Both the position numbers and the translations under genes were made by a program. Shown piece after piece: positions 5,251 through 31,281 of a stretch of 32,000 bases of DNA. A model generated the notes under the pieces. The model had not been told where the DNA came from, ran no database searches, and saw only the letters and a program-made list of their open reading frames with translations. Every line of letters begins with the position of its first letter. Position 1 is the stretch's first letter. Source of the DNA: Candidatus Scalindua sp. (GTDB taxonomy: Bacteria; Planctomycetota; Brocadiia; Brocadiales; Scalinduaceae); the NCBI GenBank assembly GCA_031316235.1, contig JALDRA010000001.1, positions 810,001 through 842,000 on the forward strand, written 5' to 3'.

Positions 5251-5464
5251 TGCTTTTAATGCCTTTAACAACGTAATATCAATATACATCACAGCTGATT
5301 AAAGGGTATAGCTTCTTGAATAATTTGTCAAGTATGTTTAATCTTTTTTTCACAAACAATTCAGATACTGTACCACTGGATATTTTAGTGGCTTATCACA
5401 CATGTCACAATGGTTTGATGATGTCCAGTCTGTAAAAAAAACTTCTCAAAAGATATGGATCCGG

Positions 5465-5579
5465 GGTCAAACAATTAGTGATCGAATCTTTGTTATCCTC
5501 TTATTCAATTTTCCATCTTTCCTTATCTTTGATTTCATAATAGCTACCCTTCGACTTATGGATGAATAACCAAGACCAA
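5465..5579 (-). mobile_element. Remnant (3' end with degenerate terminal repeat) of the Y1-DnaA_C element family
   Basis: GGTCAAAC..AATTAGTGATCGAATC followed by sequence matching the last ~35 codons of the 15352-16317 gene (SSISRRV...KV stop). Similarity ends at about 5579. Confidence 0.75.
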
Positions 5580-5699
5580 TCATTATGGCCTCCATCAATA
5601 ATCGACCGCTTTAATCCGGGAATGGCTGCGACAAGAGCATTTGCGTGTCTCACCGGGAGGGAGCATTCCCGATTTTTTGTAAAATATAATAAAAAGATC

Positions 5700-5728
5700 T
5701 TGACTTCCTCGTTGCTTTCAACGATAAT
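5700..5728 (+). promoter_or_regulatory. Putative sigma70 promoter of the IS-borne MTase (TTGACT, 17-nt spacer, GATAAT) with a GATC abutting the -35
   Basis: TTGACT at 5700-5705, GATAAT at 5723-5728 and the ATG at 5735, which is only 6 nt after the -10, so the mRNA may be leaderless. No SD is visible. The arrangement is conserved in all three copies. Confidence 0.45.
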
Positions 5729-5734
5729 ACTTCC

Positions 5735-6400
5735 ATGAATTATCCAGGCGGCAAAGGAGGAGTATTCCAAAAGTTAATCAATCTTATGCCACCCCATGAT
5801 GTCTACATAGAGACTCATTTGGGTGGTGGTGCTGTTATACGGAACAAACGGCCTGCCAGGAGTAATTTCGGGATAGAAATTGACTCGGAAGTTGTTGAGA
5901 TGTGGACGAATATGCATCCAATAGATTTTGAACTGGTCCATGATGACGCAATTAATTATCTGAATAATTATCATTTCAAAGGAAAAGAACTGGTATATTG
6001 TGACCCACCATATCTTCGCGAGACAAGGAAAAAATATGGACAGCTATATAAATATGATTATAGCCGTGCGCAGCACATCGAACTTCTGGAAGTTTTGAAA
6101 ACTCTTCCCTGCATGGTGATGATATCCGGTTACGAGTCAACCTTATACAAAGAATCATTACGTAGCTGGCAGACACATTCTTTTCAGGCCGTCTGTCATC
6201 ATGGCGTAGCAACTGAGTGGTTATGGATGAACTATAGTGTTCCGGTAGAACTGCACGATTATCGTTATCTTGGCAATGACTTTCGTGAGCGGGAACGGAT
6301 AAAGAGGAAGACCAGAAGGTGGACAGCGAAACTTCAATCCATGCCTGTATTAGAGCGCCAGGCGTTACTATCCGCCATAGATGTAGTCAGGGAGCGATAG
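5735..6400 (+). CDS. DNA N6-adenine methyltransferase, D12/Dam-like, 221 aa (IS passenger)
   Basis: N-terminal YPGGK, motif I ETHLGGGAV and motif IV DPPY (VYCDPPYL). Near-identical to 25331-25996. Confidence 0.8.
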   Translation: MNYPGGKGGVFQKLINLMPPHDVYIETHLGGGAVIRNKRPARSNFGIEIDSEVVEMWTNMHPIDFELVHDDAINYLNNYHFKGKELVYCDPPYLRETRKKYGQLYKYDYSRAQHIELLEVLKTLPCMVMISGYESTLYKESLRSWQTHSFQAVCHHGVATEWLWMNYSVPVELHDYRYLGNDFRERERIKRKTRRWTAKLQSMPVLERQALLSAIDVVRER

Positions 6401-6574
6401 AAGTCTTTTGAAAGGGGGAATTTTTGGCTTGAGAAAGATAGAGTCATCCGATAACTGGAGAGCTTTATTTTATGGTTTTTTAGACACTCGATTGGATAAG
6501 ATTGGGGAAGAGTACTCAATGGAAGATTTAGGAGAAATCTCAAAAGCTGTTTTCGAAGAGAGAGCGAAGATTGT

Positions 6575-8067: not shown

Positions 8068-8107
8068 TTGATTCTTGTGCAGGTGGGTATTGGGGTCTGG
8101 GTATTGG

Positions 8108-8856
8108 GGTCAAACCTTGATTAGTGATCTAATCTCTGTTATCCTCTTATTCAATTTTCCATCTTTCGTTATCTTTGATTTCACAATAGCTACCCTTCGA
8201 CTTATGGATGAATAACCAAGACCAAACAAATTACCAATTTCCTGGTTATTATACCAACCGGTACTCCACAGAAGATAGATTAATAAATCACGATTTAATT
8301 TATCTGAATCACTTATCCTTGAGGATCGTAAAAAAACACCCGTATCGCACTTTAAAACTTTTGCCGCTATCTTCAGAATTTTTTCAGGATTAGTATCTCT
8401 TAATACTTGCCTTTTTTGAGGAATTTCAACATCTGGGTTTTCTGACAAATACTGAGACTTTATACGGTCAATAAATTCCTGGGAACCAAAAAAAGGCCAT
8501 GTCGAAAATCTTCCCACATTTTTGTTTCTTCTTTGGAGTAACTTTGTACCATTTTCCTATATGCCAGGTGCTTGTTTTTTGTATCGAAAAGAGAAAGAAT
8601 AGGCTTTGTAATCAACCACTCCGGTGATTTCTTGCCATAAGCATAAATAGAATAACTGCTCCATGGATAGTCAGCCAGTCTCCTGACTATTCCTGCACGC
8701 AGAGGATTTCTATGGATATAACAGGAGAGAAGCATCAGGTATTCATCATTTTCTATAAGAAAGCTTTTGAAGCGCCCTTGAAAAAGATGTCCATTTCGCT
8801 TGTGTTTAATATTATATTGACGTGTATAGGTTGTTCCAAACCATTGCATGCCTTTT
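8108..8856 (-). pseudogene. Y1-DnaA_C element copy, 5'-truncated and frameshifted
   Basis: ORFs 8110-8517 and 8460-8849 together match residues ~79-321 of the 15352-16317 product. The run of A at 8478-8484 is 7 nt long versus 8 nt in the intact copy. The left terminal repeat GGTCAAACCTTGATTAGTGATC is present, while the HUH region and right end are absent. Confidence 0.85.
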
Positions 8857-9357
8857 AGTGAAGAGACTCCATAGTTACTCAGTAATTAATTATTCTTCTT
8901 GAGGAAATGTAGTTTAAAAATGCTATAAAGTTTCAGGAGTAGAATTGATGCTAAGAAGAGCTTTTGCTCTATCATCAAAAGTATCCTTCACACGTAAGTC
9001 TTCAATACGTGCAGATAACAAGCCTTTGCACCCGGGGCGCACCATTATCACCATTCTGCATCATTGTTCTCGAACCGTTTCAAATAAATTCAATCATACG
9101 ATAATTTACTACCCTGCTTTTGTTTCAAAAAACTCATGGGTAAAAACGTACATCCTCGTAAAAGCTGCATACTTTTAGCCATACATGACCCTAGTTAAAC
9201 ATATTATGCATTTAGCAGAGAAGCTCACCAATTAAAACATATTTACAAACGATAAAGGTAAACTCTGAGTGATCAGGGGACGTAAAGTAACAGGGTCTTA
9301 ACGCATATACAGGAAAAAGACTGTTTTACTGAATAGATAGTTTTTCTGCCGAAGATG

Positions 9358-10568: not shown

Positions 10569-10687
10569 AAAAAATTCCTTTTTATTGCCATTTTTTATAA
10601 ATTTTGTAGTAACAGTAATGCTTATTGAATAATACAGAATCAGATAAGTCAAGGTAAATTAGTTGGATAAAGTAAAAGGGGAGCATT

Positions 10688-11470
10688 CCCGATTTTTTGT
10701 AAAATATAATAAAAAGATCTTGACTTCCTCGTTGCTTTCAACGATAATACTTCCATGAATTATCCAGGCGGCAAAGGAGGAGTATTCCAAAAGTTAATCA
10801 ATCTTATGCCACCCCATGATGTCTACATAGAGACTCATTTGGGTGGTGGTGCTGTTATACGGAACAAACGGCCTGCCAGGAGTAATTTTGGGATAGAAAT
10901 TGACTCGGAAGTTGTTGAGATGTGGACGAATATGCATCCAATAGATTTTGAACTGGTCCATGATGACGCAATTAATTATCTGAATAATTATCATTTCAAA
11001 GGAAAAGAACTGGTATATTGTGACCCACCATATCTTCGCGAGACAAGGAAAAAATATGGACAGCTATATAAATATGATTATAGCCGTGCGCAGCATCGAA
11101 CTTCTGGAAGTTTTGAAAACTCTTCCCTGCATGGTGATGATATCCGGTTACGAGTCAACCTTATACAAAGAATCATTACGTAGCTGGCAGACACATTCTT
11201 TTCAGGCCGTCTGTCATCATGGCGTAGCAACTGAGTGGTTATGGATGAACTATAGTGTTCCGGTAGAACTGCACGATTATCGTTATCTTGGCAATGACTT
11301 TCGTGAGCGGGAACGGATAAAGAGGAAGACCAGAAGGTGGACAGCGAAACTTCAATCCATGCCTGTATTAGAGCGCCAGGCGTTACTATCCGCCATAGAT
11401 GTAGTCAGGGAGCGATAGAAGTCTTTTGAAAGGGAGAATTTTTGGCTTGTGTGGTCAGAAGAAAGATCAG
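10688..11470 (+). mobile_element. IS with methyltransferase passenger, copy 2: left end plus MTase pseudogene; transposase lost
   Basis: Same left end and promoter as copy 1. Similarity to the intact copy fades about 50 nt after the MTase stop. Confidence 0.85.
10755..11418 (+). pseudogene. Dam-like MTase with a 2-bp deletion
   Basis: CAGCACATCGAAC in copy 1 (about 6071-6083) reads CAGCATCGAAC here (about 11091-11101). This splits the gene into ORFs 10755-11183 and 11020-11418. Total length is 664 nt versus 666 nt. Confidence 0.9.
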
Positions 11471-11593: not shown

Positions 11594-11618
11594 ACTTATC
11601 ATGTTCCGACCCCGCCCC
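11594..11618 (-). repeat. Solo tip of the second (IS200-like) Y1 element 5' end
   Basis: ACTTATCATGTTCCGACCCCGCCCC resembles 18006-18030 (ACTTATCATGGTCAGACCCCACCCC) and 14401-14426. Confidence 0.4.
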
Positions 11619-14131: not shown

Positions 14132-14311
14132 GGTCCAGGAAAAAATAACTTGTTGTTTTATAGCGCTCAGTTTTAGATCAGATTTGGTCGATCTGATCGA
14201 GCAGGACCGCAGGCGTAGCCTTAGCTACAGCGAGGATACTGCGAGTGAAGACCGGCCGAAGGTGGCCTGAAAATGAGATGCAAGAACGACAAGTTATTCT
14301 TTCCTGAAACC
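14132..14311. mobile_element. C-family MITE (180 bp, ~27-bp TIRs, TTAG target duplication)
   Basis: GGTCCAGGAAAAAATAACTTGTTGTT versus the reverse complement of the right end, GGTTTCAGGAAAGAATAACTTGTCGTT (23/27). TTAG lies at 14128-14131 and 14312-14315. The interior is GC-rich with the hairpin GATCAGAT..ATCTGATC. Confidence 0.65.
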
Positions 14312-14316
14312 TTAGT

Positions 14317-14426
14317 TAAACACCGATTTTCTGTACTAAAAACAGGTATTTAAGGATAAAAATGTCACCCCTTTAAAGGTTATCTCTTTGTGCAACGGCA
14401 ACTTATCATGATCAGATCCCGCCACC
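14317..14426 (-). repeat. 5'-end fragment of the second (IS200-like) Y1 element
   Basis: About 110 nt match 17921-18030 (TTCTGTACTAAAAAYAGGTATTTAAGGATAAAAATGTCACC...CTTATCATG). Confidence 0.7.
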
Positions 14427-14433
14427 GACGCGC

Positions 14434-14508
14434 CAAATTCAATACGCCATTGTCTTGCCATAACAGACATAGTAACACAAACTACCTTTTACTGATCAAG
14501 GTGGCCCC
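14434..14508 (-). mobile_element. Y1-DnaA_C element remnant: right terminal repeat, promoter region and first ~8 codons
   Basis: AAATTCAATACGCCATTGTCTTGCCATAA...CTACCTTTTACTGATCAAGGTGGCCCC matches 16293-16384 with an internal deletion. Confidence 0.75.
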
Positions 14509-15319: not shown

Positions 15320-15349
15320 TTATTCGAGGGTAAGGTCAAGTGAGGGTGA

Positions 15350-16382
15350 GGTCAAACCTTGATTAGTGATCTAATCTCCGTTACCCTCTTATTCAATTTT
15401 CCATCTTTCGTTATCTTTGATTTCATAATAGCTACCCTTCGACTTATGGATGAATAACCAAGACCAAACAAATTACCAATTTCCTGGTTATTATACCAAC
15501 CGGTACTCCACAGAAGATAGATTAATAAATCACGATTTAATTTATCTGAATCACTTATCCTTGAGGATCGTAAAAAATCACCCGTATCGCACTTTAAAAC
15601 TTTTGCCGCTATCTTCAGAATTTTTTCAGGATTATTATCTCTTAATACTTGCCTTTTTTGAGGAATTTCAACATCTGGGTTTTCTGACAAATACTGAGAC
15701 TTTATACGGTCAATAAATTCCTGGGAACCAAAAAAAAGGCCATGTCGAAAATCTTCCCATATTTTTGTTTCTTCTTTAGAGTAACTTTGTACCATTTTCC
15801 TATATGCCAGGTGCTTGTTTTTTGTATCGAAAAGAGAAAGAATAGGCTTTGTAATCAACCACTCCGGTGATTTCTTGTCATAAGCATAAATAGAATAACT
15901 GCTCCATGGATAGTCAGCCAGTCTCCTCACTATTCCTGCACGCAGAGGATTTCTATGGATATAACAGGAGAGAAGCATAAGGTATTCATCATTTTCTATA
16001 AGAAAGCTTTTGAAGCGCCCTTGAAAAAGATGTCTATTTCGCTTGTGTTTAATATTATATTGACGTGTATAGGTTGTTCCAAACCATTGCATGCCTTTAG
16101 AAATATTGGGCTTATTAGTTTTCAGTAACAAATGGTAATGATTATCCATGAGGGCATAAGCGTAAACTTCAATAGCAAACCTGTCTGACATTTCCCCCAG
16201 AGTGTCCAGGAATAAAATACGGTCATCGTTATCTCGAAAAATATCCCTTCGTTCATTTCCTCGTGATAAGATATGATAGTAAGCCCCTTCAAATTCAATA
16301 CGCCATTGTCTTGCCATAAAAGACACAGTAGCACAAGCTACCTTTTAATGTCAAGCGATTAATCACTGTTCAAGGTTTGACC
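15350..16382 (-). mobile_element. Y1-DnaA_C element, intact copy (1033 bp) with terminal inverted repeats
   Basis: Left end GGTCAAACCTTGATTAGTGATCTAATC. Reverse complement of the right end GGTCAAACCTTGAACAGTGATTAATC. The TGA stop of the gene lies inside the left repeat. Confidence 0.8.
15352..16317 (-). CDS. HUH/Y1 (IS200-like, RayT-like) transposase fused to a C-terminal DnaA-domain-IV-like HTH, 321 aa
   Basis: ATG at 16317 (MARQWRIEFEGAYYHILSRGNERRDIF). HUH is at DNHYHLLL and the catalytic-Tyr region at CYIHRNPLRAG. The C-terminal RDLLIYLLWSTGWYNNQEIGNLFGLGYSSISRRV resembles the DnaA C-terminal HTH. Confidence 0.8.
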   Translation of the reverse strand: MARQWRIEFEGAYYHILSRGNERRDIFRDNDDRILFLDTLGEMSDRFAIEVYAYALMDNHYHLLLKTNKPNISKGMQWFGTTYTRQYNIKHKRNRHLFQGRFKSFLIENDEYLMLLSCYIHRNPLRAGIVRRLADYPWSSYSIYAYDKKSPEWLITKPILSLFDTKNKHLAYRKMVQSYSKEETKIWEDFRHGLFFGSQEFIDRIKSQYLSENPDVEIPQKRQVLRDNNPEKILKIAAKVLKCDTGDFLRSSRISDSDKLNRDLLIYLLWSTGWYNNQEIGNLFGLGYSSISRRVAIMKSKITKDGKLNKRVTEIRSLIKV

Positions 16383-16577
16383 CCAGTTGGCCCACCCTCT
16401 CATTCATTATAGCATTATAAGGAAGATGCCAACAATGTACTTCACACAAATAATGGTTACTCATAAGACAATAAGCTGAAATATACCCAGGTACTGTATC
16501 CATTTTATTCATTAATCCATGTCATTATTGGTTGAATATAAATACAAATTCATGTAAAATTTAATCCTTATTGATGA

Positions 16578-17758: not shown

Positions 17759-18030
17759 CCTTAATCCAAATTTCTTTTTAGCTTCAAACTGCCAGTACAT
17801 CCAACGCTTACGATCTTTCAGAAATTTCAAAAGAAATTCTTTTTTATGGCATCTATGGGTGATATGCCAAACATAATTTGGGATATAATGTCTATTTGCA
17901 CGTGCCATAACAAAAATTATTTAAACAACTCTTTTCTGTACTAAAAATAGGTATTTAAGGATAAAAATGTCACCTCTTTAAAGGTTATCTCTTTGTGCAA
18001 CTATAACTTATCATGGTCAGACCCCACCCC
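17759..18030 (-). pseudogene. Second IS200-like Y1 transposase: 5' end region plus the first ~50 codons only
   Basis: ATG at 17908, giving MARANRHYIPNYVWHITHRCHKKEFLLKFLKDRKRWMYWQFEAKKKFGL. The frame then runs straight into repeat A5. Upstream, 17909-18030 is repeated at 14317-14426. Confidence 0.7.
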
Positions 18031-23888: not shown

Positions 23889-25307
23889 TTATTTAACAAT
23901 TCGAAGACTTCTCTTAAATTTTTTATTTTTAATTCTTTCCTGGTCGTCCCTTTTGTATTTTTCGATAACTTTATCGTAAGTACCGTTATATTTCGCGCAT
24001 CTGATCTTGAGTATGTTATTAGCGTTTTGGATATACCACCAAGCTCCTGATCGTTTAAGCCTTGTATGGCTAATGAATTTATTGGCGCTTTCAATAGCAC
24101 CGCTGCCAATGTGATATCCTCCACGCTTGGCGGAACTGTAATCCATCTTTTCACAATGATTTGTGAGATAGGTATAAAACTTGTCAATTTTATCTTGAAT
24201 ATCTTGAGTTCGGGCTTTCATCTTTCCAAGACCGCCAAGCACCTCTTCATGGTAACCATAATATATTCTTGTCAGAGTCGCCTCACACCACTGTAGAGAC
24301 TCTCTTGTCTCTTTTCCGTAATGGGCATTGGCTACACCATGGACATACTCCGAGCAATGGTAATAGTCGAGAATCTCTTTTGCCGAGGGAAATATTTCTT
24401 TACATCGGTTCCAGATCCAGGGAGCACCGTCTCCTATAATTCCCAGGCGTATCTTCTCGTGGGGAATAAGCCCGGCTTCTTTGATCTTAACCAAGTATTC
24501 TGCTAATTCGTGATCTGCACAAACCTGGTGCCAGCTAATTAAATGAATAATAGTTTGACCATCGATGAGATACAGTCTAAAACCTTTAATCTCTTTGTAT
24601 TCTCCCTTGCCTCTTTTCCCTTTACGGGGGTGAGGACTTGGCTCGGGACGCATCGGCCCGTGGGCTCCATCCAGGGCAAGCATCATAATGGGACGACGAA
24701 ACTTATCCACTGAGAGGTTTTCTATCTGCTTATCAATCTCTTCCCTGGGCGGGCAGACATCCAAAATTCCCACTTCTTGACCAATGGCATTCGTGGTCTC
24801 ATGCATATGATGTTCACTCAGCTTTACTCCGGTTATTCTCTCGTAGGTTTCGCTGGCCGTCTCATAGGCCGTTTCGCTTGACAACCAGGCTTCCACATCT
24901 TGCACATCATATTGCTTCGATGATTCAGACAATCCAAGGGCTTCGTCTAAAGGATAGTATCCTAAACGACACGCTCTGCAATAAAAATAAGGCCTGGTTA
25001 ATTCAAATTGTCCGGCAAGGGTTTGGATAGTCTTGGATTGTTTTCCTTGTCTTTGCATACCCTTGCCGCATTCGGGGCAATCGCAGCTTTGCTGATTCAA
25101 TAAATGTCCAAATTTCCTCTCTATGAACCCAAGAATCAGTTGTCCTAATATCTCCGCTCTCTCTTCGAAAACAGCTTTTGAGATTTCTCCTAAATCTTCC
25201 ATTGAGTACTCTTCCTCAATCTTATCCAATCGGGTGTCTAAAAAACCATAAAATAAAGCTCTCCAGTTATCGGATGACTCTATCTTTCTTTTCACCACAC
25301 AAGTCAA
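23889..25307 (-). CDS. DDE transposase, ISKra4/ISLre2-like (family unverified), 472 aa
   Basis: TTG start with GGGGG five nt upstream. Zinc module CDCPECG...YFYCRAC. Motifs ALDGAHGP, IIGDGAPWIWN and ILDYYHCSEY. Confidence 0.75.
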   Translation of the reverse strand: MTCVVKRKIESSDNWRALFYGFLDTRLDKIEEEYSMEDLGEISKAVFEERAEILGQLILGFIERKFGHLLNQQSCDCPECGKGMQRQGKQSKTIQTLAGQFELTRPYFYCRACRLGYYPLDEALGLSESSKQYDVQDVEAWLSSETAYETASETYERITGVKLSEHHMHETTNAIGQEVGILDVCPPREEIDKQIENLSVDKFRRPIMMLALDGAHGPMRPEPSPHPRKGKRGKGEYKEIKGFRLYLIDGQTIIHLISWHQVCADHELAEYLVKIKEAGLIPHEKIRLGIIGDGAPWIWNRCKEIFPSAKEILDYYHCSEYVHGVANAHYGKETRESLQWCEATLTRIYYGYHEEVLGGLGKMKARTQDIQDKIDKFYTYLTNHCEKMDYSSAKRGGYHIGSGAIESANKFISHTRLKRSGAWWYIQNANNILKIRCAKYNGTYDKVIEKYKRDDQERIKNKKFKRSLRIVK

Positions 25308-25330
25308 AAATACCCCCTTTCAAAAGACTT

Positions 25331-25996
25331 CTATCGCTCCCTGAATACATCTATGGCGAATAGTAACGCCTGACGTTCTAATACAGGCATGGATTTAAGT
25401 TTCGCTGTCCACCTTTTGGTCTTCCTCTTTATCCGTTCCCGCTCACGAAAGTTATTGCCAAGATAACGATAGTCGTGCAGTCCTACCGGAACACTATAGT
25501 TCATCCATAACCACTCCGTTGCTACGCCATGATGACAGACGGCCTGAAAAGAATGTGTCTGCCAGCTACGCAATGATTCTTTGTATAAGGTTGACTCGTA
25601 ACCGGATATCATCACCATGCAGGGAAGAGTTTTCAAAACTTCCAAAAGTTCGATGTGCTGCGCACGGCTATAGTCATATTTATATAGCCGTCCATACTTT
25701 TTCCTTGTCTCGCGAAGATATGGTGGGTCACAATATACCAGTTCTTTTCCTGTGAAATGATAATTATTCAGATAATTAATTGCGTCATCATGGACCAGTT
25801 CAAAACCTATTGGATGCATATTTGTCCACATCTCAACAACTTCCGAGTCAATTTCTATCCCAAAATTACTCCTGGCAGGTCGTTTGTTCCGTATAACAGC
25901 GCCACCACCCAAATGAGTCTCTATGTAGACATCATGGGGTGGCATAAGATTGATTAACTTTTGGAATACACCTCCTTTGCCGCCTGGATAATTCAT
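25331..25996 (-). CDS. DNA N6-adenine methyltransferase, D12/Dam-like, 221 aa (IS passenger)
   Basis: Same protein as 5735-6400 with a few substitutions (YPGGK, ETHLGGGAV, DPPY). Confidence 0.8.
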   Translation of the reverse strand: MNYPGGKGGVFQKLINLMPPHDVYIETHLGGGAVIRNKRPARSNFGIEIDSEVVEMWTNMHPIGFELVHDDAINYLNNYHFTGKELVYCDPPYLRETRKKYGRLYKYDYSRAQHIELLEVLKTLPCMVMISGYESTLYKESLRSWQTHSFQAVCHHGVATEWLWMNYSVPVGLHDYRYLGNNFRERERIKRKTKRWTAKLKSMPVLERQALLFAIDVFRER

Positions 25997-26197
25997 GGAA
26001 GAATTATCGTTGAAAACAACGAGGAAGTCAAGATCTTTTATTATATTTTACAAAAAATCGGGAATGCTCCCTTTCGCATAAGCAACCACCACCTGCTTGT
26101 ATGCTTGCAAGAGAGGCTTGAAGCGGCAGCCCCAATAAATATTAAACCGCAAATATCTGGTGGTTGGCTTCATGCGCTTGTAGGATCTCTCCAATTT

Positions 26198-26366: not shown

Positions 26367-26369
26367 TAG

Positions 26370-27393
26370 GGTCAAACCTTGATCTGTGATTTAATCATTG
26401 TTATTCTTTCCTTGATCTTACCATCTTTAGATTTCACGATAGTTACTCGACGACTTATAGATGAATAACAAAGGCCAAATAATTTACCAATCTCCTGATT
26501 GCTATACCACCCTGTACTCCATAAAAAATAGATTAATATATCACGATCGTATTTATTTTCTTCGCTTATCCTTGAGGATTGTATAAAATCATTTGTATTA
26601 CACTTTAATACCTCTGCCGCTTTCTTCAGAAGTGATTCAGGGTTGGTATTTCTTAATACCTGACGCTTTTGTGGGACTTCAACATCAGTTTTTTCTGTCA
26701 AATATTTAGACCTTATTTGGTCGACAAATTTCTGGGAACCCAAAATAATACCGTGTCGAAAATCTTCCCATATCCTCTTCTCTTCCTTGGAATAGCTTTG
26801 CACTATTTCCCTGTATGCTTTGTGCTTCTCTTTTGTCTCCACACATGAAAAGATAGGCCCCGTACATAACCACTCCGGTGACTTCTTCCCATAAGCATAA
26901 ATTGGATAACTGCTCCATGGATAATCTACTAATCTCCTGACAATTCCGGCCCGCAACGGATTTCTATGAATATAGCAAGAAAGCCGTATTAGGTATTCAT
27001 CATTTTCGATGAGAAAGTTTTTGAAGCGTCCTTGAAACAAGTGACCGCTTCGCTTATGCTTTACATTGTATCTACGTGTATAAGTAGTACCAAACCATTG
27101 CATGCTTTTAGAGATATTGGAATTATTGGTTTTTAGTAGCAAATGATAATGATTATCCATAAGAACGTATGCATAAACCTCAACATCAAACCTGTCAGCC
27201 ATACTTCCTAAAGTCTCTAGAAACAAAATACGATCGTCACTATCCTGAAAAATATCCCTTCGCTCATTACCGCGTGATAAGATGTGATAATAAGCTCCCT
27301 TATACTCTATGCGCCATTGTCTTGCCATGGTAGACAAGGTATCACAAACCACCTTTAATCGTCAAGCATATAATCACATATCAAGGTGTGACC
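26370..27393 (-). mobile_element. Y1-DnaA_C element, second intact but diverged copy (1024 bp)
   Basis: Left end GGTCAAACCTTGATCTGTGATTTAATC. Right end ATCACATATCAAGGTGTGACC. Confidence 0.8.
26372..27328 (-). CDS. HUH/Y1 transposase fused to a DnaA-domain-IV-like HTH, 318 aa
   Basis: ATG at 27328 (MARQWRIEYKGAYYHILSRGNERRDIF). Motifs DNHYHLLL and CYIHRNPLRAG. C-terminal RDILIYFLWSTGWYSNQEIGKLFGLCYSSISRRV. Confidence 0.8.
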   Translation of the reverse strand: MARQWRIEYKGAYYHILSRGNERRDIFQDSDDRILFLETLGSMADRFDVEVYAYVLMDNHYHLLLKTNNSNISKSMQWFGTTYTRRYNVKHKRSGHLFQGRFKNFLIENDEYLIRLSCYIHRNPLRAGIVRRLVDYPWSSYPIYAYGKKSPEWLCTGPIFSCVETKEKHKAYREIVQSYSKEEKRIWEDFRHGIILGSQKFVDQIRSKYLTEKTDVEVPQKRQVLRNTNPESLLKKAAEVLKCNTNDFIQSSRISEENKYDRDILIYFLWSTGWYSNQEIGKLFGLCYSSISRRVTIVKSKDGKIKERITMIKSQIKV

Positions 27394-27399
27394 CCATTT

Positions 27400-27470: not shown

Positions 27471-27522
27471 ATACAAATCTTCAGTCAGGACACTGGTAGA
27501 ATAAGGCTGAAAAATAAAGCAT

Positions 27523-27575
27523 CACATCTTGATTAGTAAACTCAAAAAATAAGTATAATCACTAATCAAGATGTG
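27523..27575. repeat. Mini-palindrome built from two Y1-DnaA_C-type terminal repeats
   Basis: CACATCTTGATTAGT (27523-27537) and ACTAATCAAGATGTG (27561-27575) form a perfect 15-bp inverted repeat, followed by GCCCC. Confidence 0.6.
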
Positions 27576-28079
27576 GCCCCAATTCAACAGGAATTAACAC
27601 AAAAACTGAAGAATACAGAAAAAGAAGTATTGTCAGTATCCAGAAATGATTTTCATATGTCTCATTTAATGAGCATTCCAGGCATTGGCCACTTTTCCGC
27701 AGCCTTAATCAAATCGGAAATCATAGATATCTCTCGTTTCGCTTCGTTTAACCGGTTATGTGCGTATGCAGGGCTTGCCCCTCGTGTCAGTGCGAGTGCA
27801 AACAAAACCTTCCATGGACCGTTAAACAAGAACAGGAGTAAAAATCTCCAATGGATATTGATAGAAAATGTTTATCATTTTATAAAAGCTATTCCAAAGA
27901 TGCAGGATAAATACGAAACACTCAAGAAGAGAAAAGAGCATAATACTGCGAAGGTAGCCCTTGCCAGGGAGATGCTCAAGATTGTCTATCATGTACTCAA
28001 AGAACAGAGGCCATTTTATCTTGATACAAAAAAATCTAAAATCCAGTCGGTGGCGGCTCCTGCACTCAGTGGGGTCTGA
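27573..28079 (+). pseudogene. IS110-family transposase, C-terminal domain only
   Basis: MSIPGIGHFSAALIKSEIIDISRFASFNRLCAYAGLAPRVSASANKTFHGPLNKNRSKNLQWIL is Transposase_20-like. The N-terminal DEDD domain is absent. Confidence 0.75.
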
Positions 28080-28309: not shown

Positions 28310-28452
28310 TATTAGTGTAACTTTAAAATAATTTGATTAATCAATTATTTGAGGAATCATCTGGTAGAAATAATCTCTTTTGTACTTGACAGTTATCTCA
28401 AAAGGTGACCCCAATTACACCACAGCACCTTGTTAGCCATTGTAGACACGAT

Positions 28453-29922: not shown

Positions 29923-31281
29923 ATGATAACTATTCCATCAGAAGTATCTGTTCGTTTCAATTCTGCTTTGGCAAAAAACAGAATTTCTAAAGAGCACCAG
30001 AATCATTATAGAAAATGGTTGCAGTACTATCTTGATTTTTGCCAAAAGTATCATTTCCAAAGTATTCAACCTGAAAGCCTCCAGAATTTTTTGAGAAAGT
30101 TGGGGAAAAAACGCCAGACACGAGAACAGCAAAAGCAGGCTTCTCATGCAATTTCTCTTTACTACTCTATTGCTCACACCGTAGCGGATCCTGTTGAGAA
30201 ATTACGGTCAGGTAGGATTCAGAATGAGCATATTTCTCCAGGGAATAAGGATTTATCTGATGAAGGCATGGAATGGCAAGCCGCGCTTGGTAATCTTTCA
30301 TCAGAAATTAAGATACGGCACTATTCACCGAAAACACTAAAGGCGTATACCCTGTGGGTCAGGCAATTTCAGGCCTTTACACGGAAAAAGGAGCCACAGC
30401 TATTGTCTTCAGCCGAGGTAAAAGAGTTTTTAACTTTTCTGGCCATAAAGCGAAAGGTCTCTGCCTCAACACAAAACCAGGCTTTTAACGCCCTCCTCTT
30501 CTTTTACCGACATGTCATCAAAAAGGATTTTGAAAATTTAAAGGATACTCCCAGGGCCAAGAGGACACGTTATATACCTGTTGTCCTGTCTCGACCAGAA
30601 ATAGACGAAATATTTATGCATCTATTATATCCATATGATTTAGTCTCTAAGCTTCTCTATGGGTGCGGACTGAGATTGTTTGAATGCTTGAACCTCCGCG
30701 TTCAAAATTTTAATTTTGACACATCTATTCTCACGATTCATGATGGAAAAGGGAAAAAAGATAGGACGGTACCTCTACCGGAGACAATCGTGCCTGATTT
30801 AAAGGCACATCTTGAACGGGTAAAGAACCTCCATCAAATAGATCTGGACGCAAATTATTCCGGAGTTTTCCTGTTTGACTTGTTGGATAAGAAATATAGA
30901 AATTGTGCAAAGGAGCTGGTCTGGCAGTGGTTTTTCCCCGCAAAAACATTGACTTTAGTTCCGGAAACAGGAGAATTTAGACGGTATCATCTACATGAAT
31001 CGCATGTGCAGAAGGCCATTAAACGGGCGGTTGGAAAGTCAAAGATAGCTAAGCGCGCCTCAGCACATACGTTCCGCCATAGCTTCGCCTCTCATCTGTT
31101 GCAAGCCAATTATGACATACGTACTATTCAGGAACTGCTGGGGCATAGCAATGTCAGGACCACGATGATTTATACCCATACGATAAAGAGGCAGACAGTA
31201 AAAGAGGCAAAGAGTCCTCTCGACTTTTCGCATCTGAAACGACCCACAGAATATAAGCAGAGGGTAACAACATCCCCCTGA
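29923..31281 (+). CDS. intI: Integron-type tyrosine recombinase IntI, 452 aa, with a ~115-aa N-terminal extension
   Basis: Catalytic R..K..HxxR..H..Y residues are present (GLRLFECLNLR, HDGKGKKDR, HTFRHSFASH, LGHSNVRTTMIYTH). The IntI-specific insert is LLDKKYRNCAKELVWQWFFPAKTLTLVPETGEFRRYHLHESHVQKA. An internal Met at 30268 would give a canonical 337-aa IntI. Confidence 0.85.
   Translation: MITIPSEVSVRFNSALAKNRISKEHQNHYRKWLQYYLDFCQKYHFQSIQPESLQNFLRKLGKKRQTREQQKQASHAISLYYSIAHTVADPVEKLRSGRIQNEHISPGNKDLSDEGMEWQAALGNLSSEIKIRHYSPKTLKAYTLWVRQFQAFTRKKEPQLLSSAEVKEFLTFLAIKRKVSASTQNQAFNALLFFYRHVIKKDFENLKDTPRAKRTRYIPVVLSRPEIDEIFMHLLYPYDLVSKLLYGCGLRLFECLNLRVQNFNFDTSILTIHDGKGKKDRTVPLPETIVPDLKAHLERVKNLHQIDLDANYSGVFLFDLLDKKYRNCAKELVWQWFFPAKTLTLVPETGEFRRYHLHESHVQKAIKRAVGKSKIAKRASAHTFRHSFASHLLQANYDIRTIQELLGHSNVRTTMIYTHTIKRQTVKEAKSPLDFSHLKRPTEYKQRVTTSP

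Follow-up and report, generated by a model that had tools for sequence, protein, structure and literature searches.

A TIRYT-type element in anammox bacteria: sequence evidence for its transposition as a whole unit

The stretch of DNA analyzed here (the window) comprises 32,000 nucleotides from Candidatus Scalindua sp. (contig JALDRA010000001.1, positions 810,001 to 842,000) and carries two intact and three broken copies of an element of about 1 kb, in which a gene for a Y1 transposase of the HUH type is enclosed by terminal inverted repeats (TIRs). RAYT-like genes that have TIRs instead of repetitive extragenic palindromes (REPs) were named TIRYTs by Di Nocera, De Gregorio and Rocco (2013, BMC Genomics 14:522; PMC3733652), and the units that contain them were named TIRtrons. 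One of the intact copies, copy A, is laid out as follows:

15348-16384, minus strand: copy A, a complete TIR-bounded element (TIRtron) of 1037 bp; the similarity of the window copies and of homologous loci begins and ends at GGGG...CCCC
15352-16317, minus strand: TIRYT gene of copy A, encoding 321 aa
16132-16140: HUH motif DNHYHLLL, residues H60-Y61-H62 of the copy A protein
15961-15963: catalytic-tyrosine motif YIHRNPLRAG, residue Y119 of the copy A protein
Residues 1 to about 150: Y1/HUH domain of the copy A protein
Residues about 150-210: family-specific extension of the copy A protein
15361-15654, minus strand: predicted C-terminal helix-turn-helix (HTH) domain resembling DnaA domain IV, residues about 222-319
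15348-15376: 3' TIR of copy A, GAGGTCAAACCTTGATTAGTGATCTAATC, which codes for the C-terminal I-K-V-stop, stop codon included
16356-16384: 5' TIR of copy A, reverse complement GGGGTCAAACCTTGAACAGTGATTAATC
16325-16354, minus strand: promoter-like TTGACA-18 nt-TACTGT of copy A, 7 nt 5' of the ATG, as read from the sequence

A preliminary description of this DNA had placed a 1033-bp unit with inverted-repeat ends at this position; the repeats are real, and the boundaries lie two bases further out. Its account of the gene stands: the 321-aa HUH/Y1 reading frame contains both motifs, and the stop codon is embedded in one of the repeats, since the TGA at 15352-15354 lies inside the 3' TIR and corresponds, as reverse complement, to the TCA of the terminal GGGGTCA. 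The two TIR arms, GAGGTCAAACCTTGATTAGTGATCTAATC and (as reverse complement) GGGGTCAAACCTTGAACAGTGAT-TAATC, are identical at 25 of 29 positions, with one indel. The encoded protein, whose C-terminal segment is RDLLIYLLWSTGWYNNQEIGNLFGLGYSSISRRV, is 100% identical to P0001, a database entry annotated as 'transposase [Candidatus Scalindua sp.]'. A consensus promoter scanner missed the TTGACA/TACTGT pair of copy A, so that the assignment of the putative promoter is weak there; it is based on the positional conservation across loci that is described below.

The N-terminal part of the protein is readily assigned. A Pfam scan returned only Y1_Tnp (E 3e-14), and the NCBIfam models REP_Tyr_transpos and transpos_IS200 gave 75.7 bits (cut-off 80) and 19.6 bits (cut-off 55), respectively. 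An AlphaFold model built on 24 homologs had a mean predicted local distance difference test score (pLDDT) of 79.9, with two confident domains and a poorly predicted linker. When the model was compared with the PDB using Foldseek, the top match was E. coli TnpA_REP (4er8; template modeling (TM) score 0.76), followed by the TnpA proteins of IS608 and ISDra2; a profile search of PDB sequences recovered 4er8 weakly (E 0.05) and no DnaA. H60 and H62, the H60-Y61-H62 triad, Y119-IHR-N123-P124 and W138-S-S are all invariant across the 24 homologs. The Y1_Tnp and REP_Tyr_transpos scores and the structural match to 4er8 are thus in agreement with the initial assignment of the protein as a RayT-type HUH/Y1 transposase.

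The C-terminal tail had been described as an HTH domain like DnaA domain IV, which is right at the level of the modeled fold and marginal at the level of sequence. Residues 230-320 have a pLDDT of about 78-87 in the AlphaFold model, and Foldseek matched this domain to the DNA-bound DNA-binding domain of M. tuberculosis DnaA (3pvp_A; TM score 0.84, normalized to the target), on which it superposes with a root-mean-square deviation of 1.6 A over 91 of 96 residues. A second structure, 8btg_A, was also matched, and the NCBIfam DnaA model aligned residues 223-320 locally with DnaA residues 360-458 (E 1e-4). In contrast, the Pfam model Bac_DnaA_C (PF08299) does not match the window proteins at E values up to 1. 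Among the 24 relatives, weak Pfam matches to Bac_DnaA_C, HTH_23 and HTH_28 occur, those to Bac_DnaA_C in only two of the 24, at a best E of 0.17 and below the gathering threshold. A search of 1.8 billion representative proteins with the C-terminal domain alone gave 402 matches, apparently all fragments or full-length members of the same family, and the top 150 of these include no proteins of DnaA length. The positions that we take to be the base-contacting D-H-T-T of E. coli DnaA read Y-S-S-I in the window protein, and no canonical DnaA box (TTATCCACA; 9-bp TTATNCACA) was seen in the TIR. The preliminary description had itself proposed scoring as DnaA_C or HTH as the test of this domain, and by the Pfam DnaA_C score the resemblance formally fails; it is upheld by the evidence from the fold.

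The window contains the following further copies, fragments and derivatives of the element:

26368-27395, minus strand: copy B, the second intact element, 1028 bp
26372-27328, minus strand: coding sequence of copy B, 318 aa
8106-8856, minus strand: copy C, 5'-truncated and frameshifted, 97-99% identical to copy A
5463-5580, minus strand: fragment D, the 3'-terminal 118 bp with its TIR
14434-14508, minus strand: fragment E, a 5' end with the first 9 codons, the leader and a partly deleted TIR
27517-27580: a 64-bp mini-element, similar to a miniature inverted-repeat transposable element (MITE) or a REPIN, with inverted TIR arms at 27520-27539 and 27556-27580, about 16 nt apart
28402-28412: a possible degenerate solo end, AAGGTGACCCC, 11 nt; weak and of doubtful value

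Copy B is 76% identical to copy A at the amino acid level and 78-79% at the nucleotide level, and the flanks of copy C are unrelated to those of copy A. Most of this inventory had been anticipated: the element is multi-copy, with copy B intact and diverged, and the three remnants C, D and E were found at the same or slightly adjusted coordinates. The two solo ends that had also been proposed fared less well, in that 27556-27582 proved to be one arm of the mini-element and the site at about 28402-28412 is only the weak 11-nt match listed above. A 15-mer TIR core, allowing up to three mismatches, has eight matches in the window compared with a mean of 1.0 in shuffled sequences, and none of 100 shuffles reached eight. 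Almost every TIR in the window belongs to a copy of the gene, the exceptions being the one mini-element and the one doubtful solo end. The genes of A, B, C, D and E all lie on the minus strand, and plus-strand GC skew is negative across the window; this shared orientation (n = 5) may reflect a replication-related orientation bias, as in IS200/IS605.

A protein search returned 3812 relatives, mostly of about 321 aa, and many of these lie on contigs hardly longer than the element, as is usual where a repeat interrupts assembly. For closer comparison, 69 loci were taken from species-representative genomes (the GTDB representatives, a set that does not include the source genome of the window) and 80 from metagenomes, with amino acid identities of 33-87%. 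Of about 70 full-length loci, nearly all have TIRs, which are 28-29 bp long in the window copies. A consensus taken over 86 distinct ends reads GGGGTCA(C/A)ACCTTGATTAGTGATTA, and conservation stops just outside the G run, beyond which there is only a weak A-A-T preference. The base that follows GGGGTCA is C at 60 of these ends, A at 22 and G at 4. TIRtrons were reported to have the common TIR motif GGGGWSAS, fixed distances between TIR and gene, and dimers and clusters of TIRs (PMC3733652); the tip of copy A, GGGGTCAA, is one base off that motif, and the 5' end of copy B, GGGGTCAC, matches it exactly. Even in a divergent metagenome set (about 50 loci, 33-81% amino acid identity), the best flank-to-flank inverted repeat nearly always opens with GG(G/T)GTCA.

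Across the family, the 3' TIR encodes a conserved C-terminal I-K-V/M-stop. Downstream of the 5' TIR, at a fixed distance, are TTGAC(A), a -10-like hexamer and then, after 6-9 nt, the ATG; 29 of the 30 5' ends that were aligned have TTGAC at this constant spacing from the terminus. This spacing suggests that the predicted mRNA is leaderless or nearly so. RNAalifold detected no conserved hairpin in the 30 aligned 5' ends, but only an invariant 4-bp GTCA/TGAC pairing without covariation. On inspection, individual copies do show small hairpins (such as GATTAG-TGAT-CTAATC in the 3' TIR of copy A); these are not conserved, and subterminal hairpins were rejected as a family feature.

A second regularity lies within the TIR, at positions of about 11-25, where two heptamers are arranged in tandem with a period of 7 (15359-15372 and 16360-16373 in the two TIRs of copy A). 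The heptamers co-vary between subfamilies, with pairs such as TTGATTA-GTGATTA, two copies of TGAATAG, two of TCTACAT or two of CCATTAT. In 17% of 83 TIR clusters the two heptamers agree at 6 or more of 7 positions, compared with 1.5% of shuffles, and periods of 5, 6, 8 and 9 reach the same level of match in 0-4%. The tandem heptamers, which are not described in the TIRYT and RAYT papers that we compared, are candidate binding sites for the HTH domain.

The extent of homology among paralogs bears on mobility. Paralogs in anammox genomes are homologous exactly from TIR to TIR and have unrelated flanks, and pairs from the same genome align at 93-94% identity over 1037-1054 bp, again from TIR to TIR (L011/L012, L015/L019 and L016/L021). 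TIR-exact paralogs in unrelated surroundings show that the element is mobile as a whole. Several anammox genomes (Scalindua, Brocadia, Jettenia and Kuenenia) have 3-6 loci each, often cut at contig ends, and a short contig (975 bp) from the same sample as the window holds the ZIP-transporter neighbor of copy A and ends inside the element. Mini-elements consisting of a pair of TIRs were found in the window, at another locus (L145; 64-66 bp) and, in similar form, at a third (L105). No target-site duplication was seen when left and right flanks were compared, which is the expectation for HUH/Y1 chemistry. By this sequence evidence, the branch of the family found in anammox bacteria transposes as a whole unit. 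The window locus itself very probably consists of copies of an autonomous TIRtron of about 1.03 kb, similar to an insertion sequence (IS), that encodes a single protein (the TIRYT) and would move as a TIR-to-TIR unit by Y1 chemistry.

Two of the loci with minis also have more complex arrangements. At L145, the regions 2299-2486 and 2600-2760 contain TIR-pair minis of 64-66 bp and a run of repeated units that each comprise a 3' TIR end plus flank. At L105 (positions 1-200), partial 5' ends of a TIRYT element form an array, joined to one another as TGACCCC-G-GGGGTCA, directly upstream of a full copy.

The repetition of the whole 1.03-kb unit with TIR-exact boundaries and unrelated flanks, the two intact and three broken copies in the window, the attachment of almost all window TIRs to genes (with one mini and one doubtful solo end otherwise) and the breaking of contigs inside the element make it quite unlikely that the gene is instead a domesticated, immobile RAYT-like host gene whose inverted repeats are REP-like sequences spread by the enzyme, on the pattern of REP/REPIN-RAYT systems, an explanation that would suit the close relationship of the protein to RayT, the occurrence of mini TIR pairs and the behavior of one family member, P0016, which is found at a single fixed locus in every sample examined. 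The fixed locus of P0016, which indicates that individual copies can be stable, also weighs against the reading of the element as a mobile TIRtron, as do several other results in addition to the lack of a Bac_DnaA_C match and of a DnaA box. Within-genome paralogs are mostly 90-94% identical, which argues against very recent activity other than that of A and C. A search for an empty site around copy A recovered no pre-insertion site; orthologs of the ZIP gene at L156 (94%) and L157 (87%) share only the gene and 8 nt upstream with the window. The sequence analysis revealed no transposition intermediate or biochemical activity, and we infer both the part of the TIR that is bound by the HTH domain and the position of the nick.

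The junctions between TIRs and flanking DNA have a further property. Short tandem duplications span the junction at 28 of 86 distinct ends, compared with a mean of 0.37 and a maximum of 3 when the flanks were shuffled (200 shuffles); they occur at none of 228 pseudo-junctions inside elements and at 0.8% of random positions. The result was replicated in the divergent metagenome set, in which 20 of 149 ends carry such a duplication versus 0.5% of controls. The repeated unit consists of a stretch of unique flank and the first bases of the TIR, the TIR part ending within the G run or directly after GGGGTC(A), and the exact duplications mostly have little or no microhomology. Examples are two copies of GGCCGAAATTGGGGTCA at L026 and two of TGACCCCAGTCCTACC at L028, and others were found at L009, L011, L012, L014, L015, L018, L025 and further loci. 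Two lie in the window:

8084-8111: exact 14-nt tandem duplication, two copies of TGGGTATTGGGGTC, covering flank plus the 6 outermost nt of the copy C TIR
15326-15355: imperfect tandem duplication, GAGGGTAAGGTCAA-GT-GAGGGTGAGGTCAA, at the flank/TIR junction of copy A (locus L075)

At one locus, a 74-bp tandem duplication of the 3' TIR and 12 nt of flank separates samples (L001 3440-3560 versus L002 3440-3490), showing that a junction duplication is polymorphic in a natural population. Junction-spanning duplications are not described in the TIRYT and RAYT papers compared. They could have arisen when DNA was nicked and rejoined at GGGGTCA^, or when a polymerase stalled at a TIR that was folded or bound by protein.

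These observations can be combined into a model of TIRYT movement by analogy with related enzymes. The HTH domain would dock the enzyme on double-stranded TIR DNA, which could be the end of the element itself or the stem that arises at a replication fork if the two TIRs of one strand pair while single-stranded. Next, the Y1 domain would cut a single strand at the terminal GGGGTCA, or adjacent to it, by way of a 5'-phosphotyrosine link and rejoin the strands, so that the element, and minis that retain both TIRs, would move without target duplication. The proposed chemistry is that of IS200/IS605 and RayT, with TIRs in place of subterminal hairpins.

A more specific version would make the element an autonomous IS with a Y1 mechanism unlike that of IS200/IS605, in which the HTH domain reads the tandem heptamers in double-stranded DNA, the nick falls immediately 3' of GGGGTCA at both ends, and faulty rejoining or nick-primed synthesis leaves the junction duplications as a footprint of the cleavage site; we regard this version as possible and put it forward tentatively. 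The same element could also move in a different manner, with the HTH domain on the tandem heptamers of double-stranded TIRs, nicks on opposite strands after GGGGTCA, and nick-primed replicative copying of the rolling-circle or terminal-resolution kind, by which no single-stranded circle is excised. Inverted ends show equal strand polarity only on opposite strands, which agrees with such copying, as do the tandem direct heptamers in each TIR and the arrays of partial 5' ends at L105. To our knowledge, all characterized Y1 enzymes (IS608, ISDra2 and RayT) act on single-stranded DNA hairpins, which is at odds with it. The recurrent junction duplications, with their break right after GGGGTCA and mostly without microhomology, would also fit, but they could instead stem from polymerase stalling, and both the position and the strand of the nick are conjectural. 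On balance, we find replicative copying of this kind doubtful.

The surroundings of the element are rich in other repeats. A different short repeat family, TATACTCATCTCATAATGGTTTTCGGATAAAATCCGAGATAAAATTGAGCGAGTATA, has 5-7 occurrences of about 55-90 nt each in the 32 kb (at 1452, 7309, 9351, 16571, 17610, 21116 and 31348), with terminal inverted 7-mers and an inner hairpin. One of its copies is abutted by an Rfam c-di-GMP-I riboswitch aptamer at 9247-9353 on the plus strand (37.1 bits; gathering threshold 35). A repeat of 0.8-0.9 kb is present in three copies (5658-6571, 10676-11467 and 25150-26074) that are 95-100% identical, one of them inverted, and encodes a 221-aa open reading frame with a D12 adenine methyltransferase domain of which just the C-terminal portion is present. 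Another repeat, at 11594-11618, 14307-14425 and 17912-18030, ends in ...ATCATGGTCAGACCCC (reverse complement GGGGTCTGACCATGAT), and one copy abuts fragment E. As judged from its sequence, this terminus resembles the TIRYT tip and might belong to a second TIR family, unrelated or distantly related, whose end it would form. The window also contains a UPF0236-family transposase (23889-25307, minus strand), an IS110-family (Transposase_20) fragment (27573-28079, plus strand) and a tyrosine integrase (29923-31281, plus strand). Amid these mobile genes are housekeeping islands with RtcB, threonine dehydratase, a ZIP transporter and ribonucleotide reductase. Around the ZIP gene, gene order no longer matches that of Scalindua S225 in either direction.

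Among known systems, classical IS200/IS605 elements lack TIRs, have imperfect subterminal hairpins at both ends, insert 3' of a specific tetra- or pentanucleotide and encode a TnpA of about 130-155 aa. The window element shares with them the Y1 HUH fold and the plan of a small single-gene element; IS200/IS605 elements make no target-site duplication, and none was seen here. It differs in the length of its protein (321 aa), which fails the transpos_IS200 model, and in having TIRs and no conserved hairpin. E. coli RayT (TnpA_REP; 4ER8) is the best match to the N-terminal fold and likewise has HUH/Y1 chemistry and a gene bracketed by inverted copies of its substrate; however, it is a 165-aa protein without an HTH tail, its gene is single-copy, and it acts on a GTAG-tagged hairpin that occurs hundreds of times. 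REPtrons combine a single-copy gene with tens to hundreds of dispersed palindromes tagged with GTAG or CGTC; unlike them, the window element has ends without a GTAG or CGTC hairpin, and in the window its TIRs are attached to the gene save for one mini. The tail shares the fold of DnaA domain IV (3PVP; TM score 0.84) but falls below the Pfam threshold (PF08299).

The closest relatives are found in a group that has been defined three times. In the study by Bertels et al. (2017; PMC5581495) it is RAYT Group 1, which ranks there as the most IS-like RAYT group (6.3% duplicates, 1.2% on plasmids). Of the 26 TIRYTs, Quentin et al. (2018; PMC6006769) assigned 20 to TnpA-Y1 subclass 2.1; they also reported that the C-terminus of subgroup 2.1.2 is like Bac_DnaA_C, HTH_23 or HTH_28 and pointed out that GGGG[AT][CG]A[CG] is unlike a DnaA box. 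The group of the TIRYTs (RAYT Group 1, subclass 2.1) reportedly ranks second in size among the Y1 subclasses and occurs in about 15% of surveyed strains. The window protein shares with subclass 2.1.2 and RAYT Group 1 the Y---NP motif, an adjacent short Ser motif, a length of about 320 aa, and a C-terminus with weak similarity to Bac_DnaA_C, HTH_23 and HTH_28; there are likewise no REP hairpins nearby, and the taxonomic spread is patchy. Class 2 TnpA-Y1 genes as published have low copy numbers, low similarity between copies and no evidence of mobility, whereas the window family has copies that are 97-99% identical (A and C) and TIR-exact paralogs, with 3-6 loci in several anammox genomes.

Direct comparison with named TIRYTs gives the same placement. 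When the window protein was compared by BLASTP with two sequences from Additional file 5 of PMC3733652, it had 39% identity with gbm 2474 (E 1e-36) and, over 207 aa (residues 1-206), 33% with pca 3049 (E 3e-34). Gene and ends correspond as well, with a RAYT-like Y1 gene, TIRs rather than REPs, a GGGGWSAS-type tip, a fixed distance between TIR and gene, and TIR dimers or clusters. The preliminary description had considered the architecture uncharacterized, and a new fusion of HUH enzyme, DnaA-type HTH and TIRs would accord with the absence of a name for the combination in Pfam and NCBIfam, with public annotations that read just 'transposase' or 'RayT', and with our finding no biochemical study of any TIRYT in the literature. 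Since TIRYTs, TIRtrons and the GGGGWSAS motif were published in 2013 and the Bac_DnaA_C-like tail of subclass 2.1.2 in 2018, and since the window protein shows direct homology to named TIRYTs, the element belongs to a group catalogued in the literature, an outcome that the preliminary description had itself named as a refutation, and a previously undescribed IS architecture is highly improbable. For annotation, the label TIRYT-type IS is to be preferred to a generic 'transposase' or 'RayT'.

The value of the anammox family lies in what it adds to that group. The published view is that there is no evidence that TIRYT genes move, and this family provides sequence evidence of unit transposition. 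It lends itself naturally to experiment, having many copies, sharp ends, mini-derivatives and a compact enzyme of 321 aa, and the candidate cleavage site GGGGTCA^ and the candidate HTH-binding heptamers are open to direct testing. Repeats of TIRYT elements also account for contig breaks in Scalindua and Brocadia assemblies.

Compared with the TIRtrons described previously, the window element is multi-copy as a whole, with near-identical copies and fragments; its protein has a DnaA-like tail of roughly 100 aa that gbm 2474 and pca 3049 do not have; and its host clade, the anammox Planctomycetota, does not appear in the text of PMC3733652 that was compared. TIR-exact paralogs, junction duplications and co-varying heptamers are the observations that go beyond the earlier papers. 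Judged by its sequence features, the element is of the TIRYT type (RAYT Group 1, TnpA-Y1 subclass 2.1.2) and is a new, unusually proliferative member of that group from anammox bacteria.

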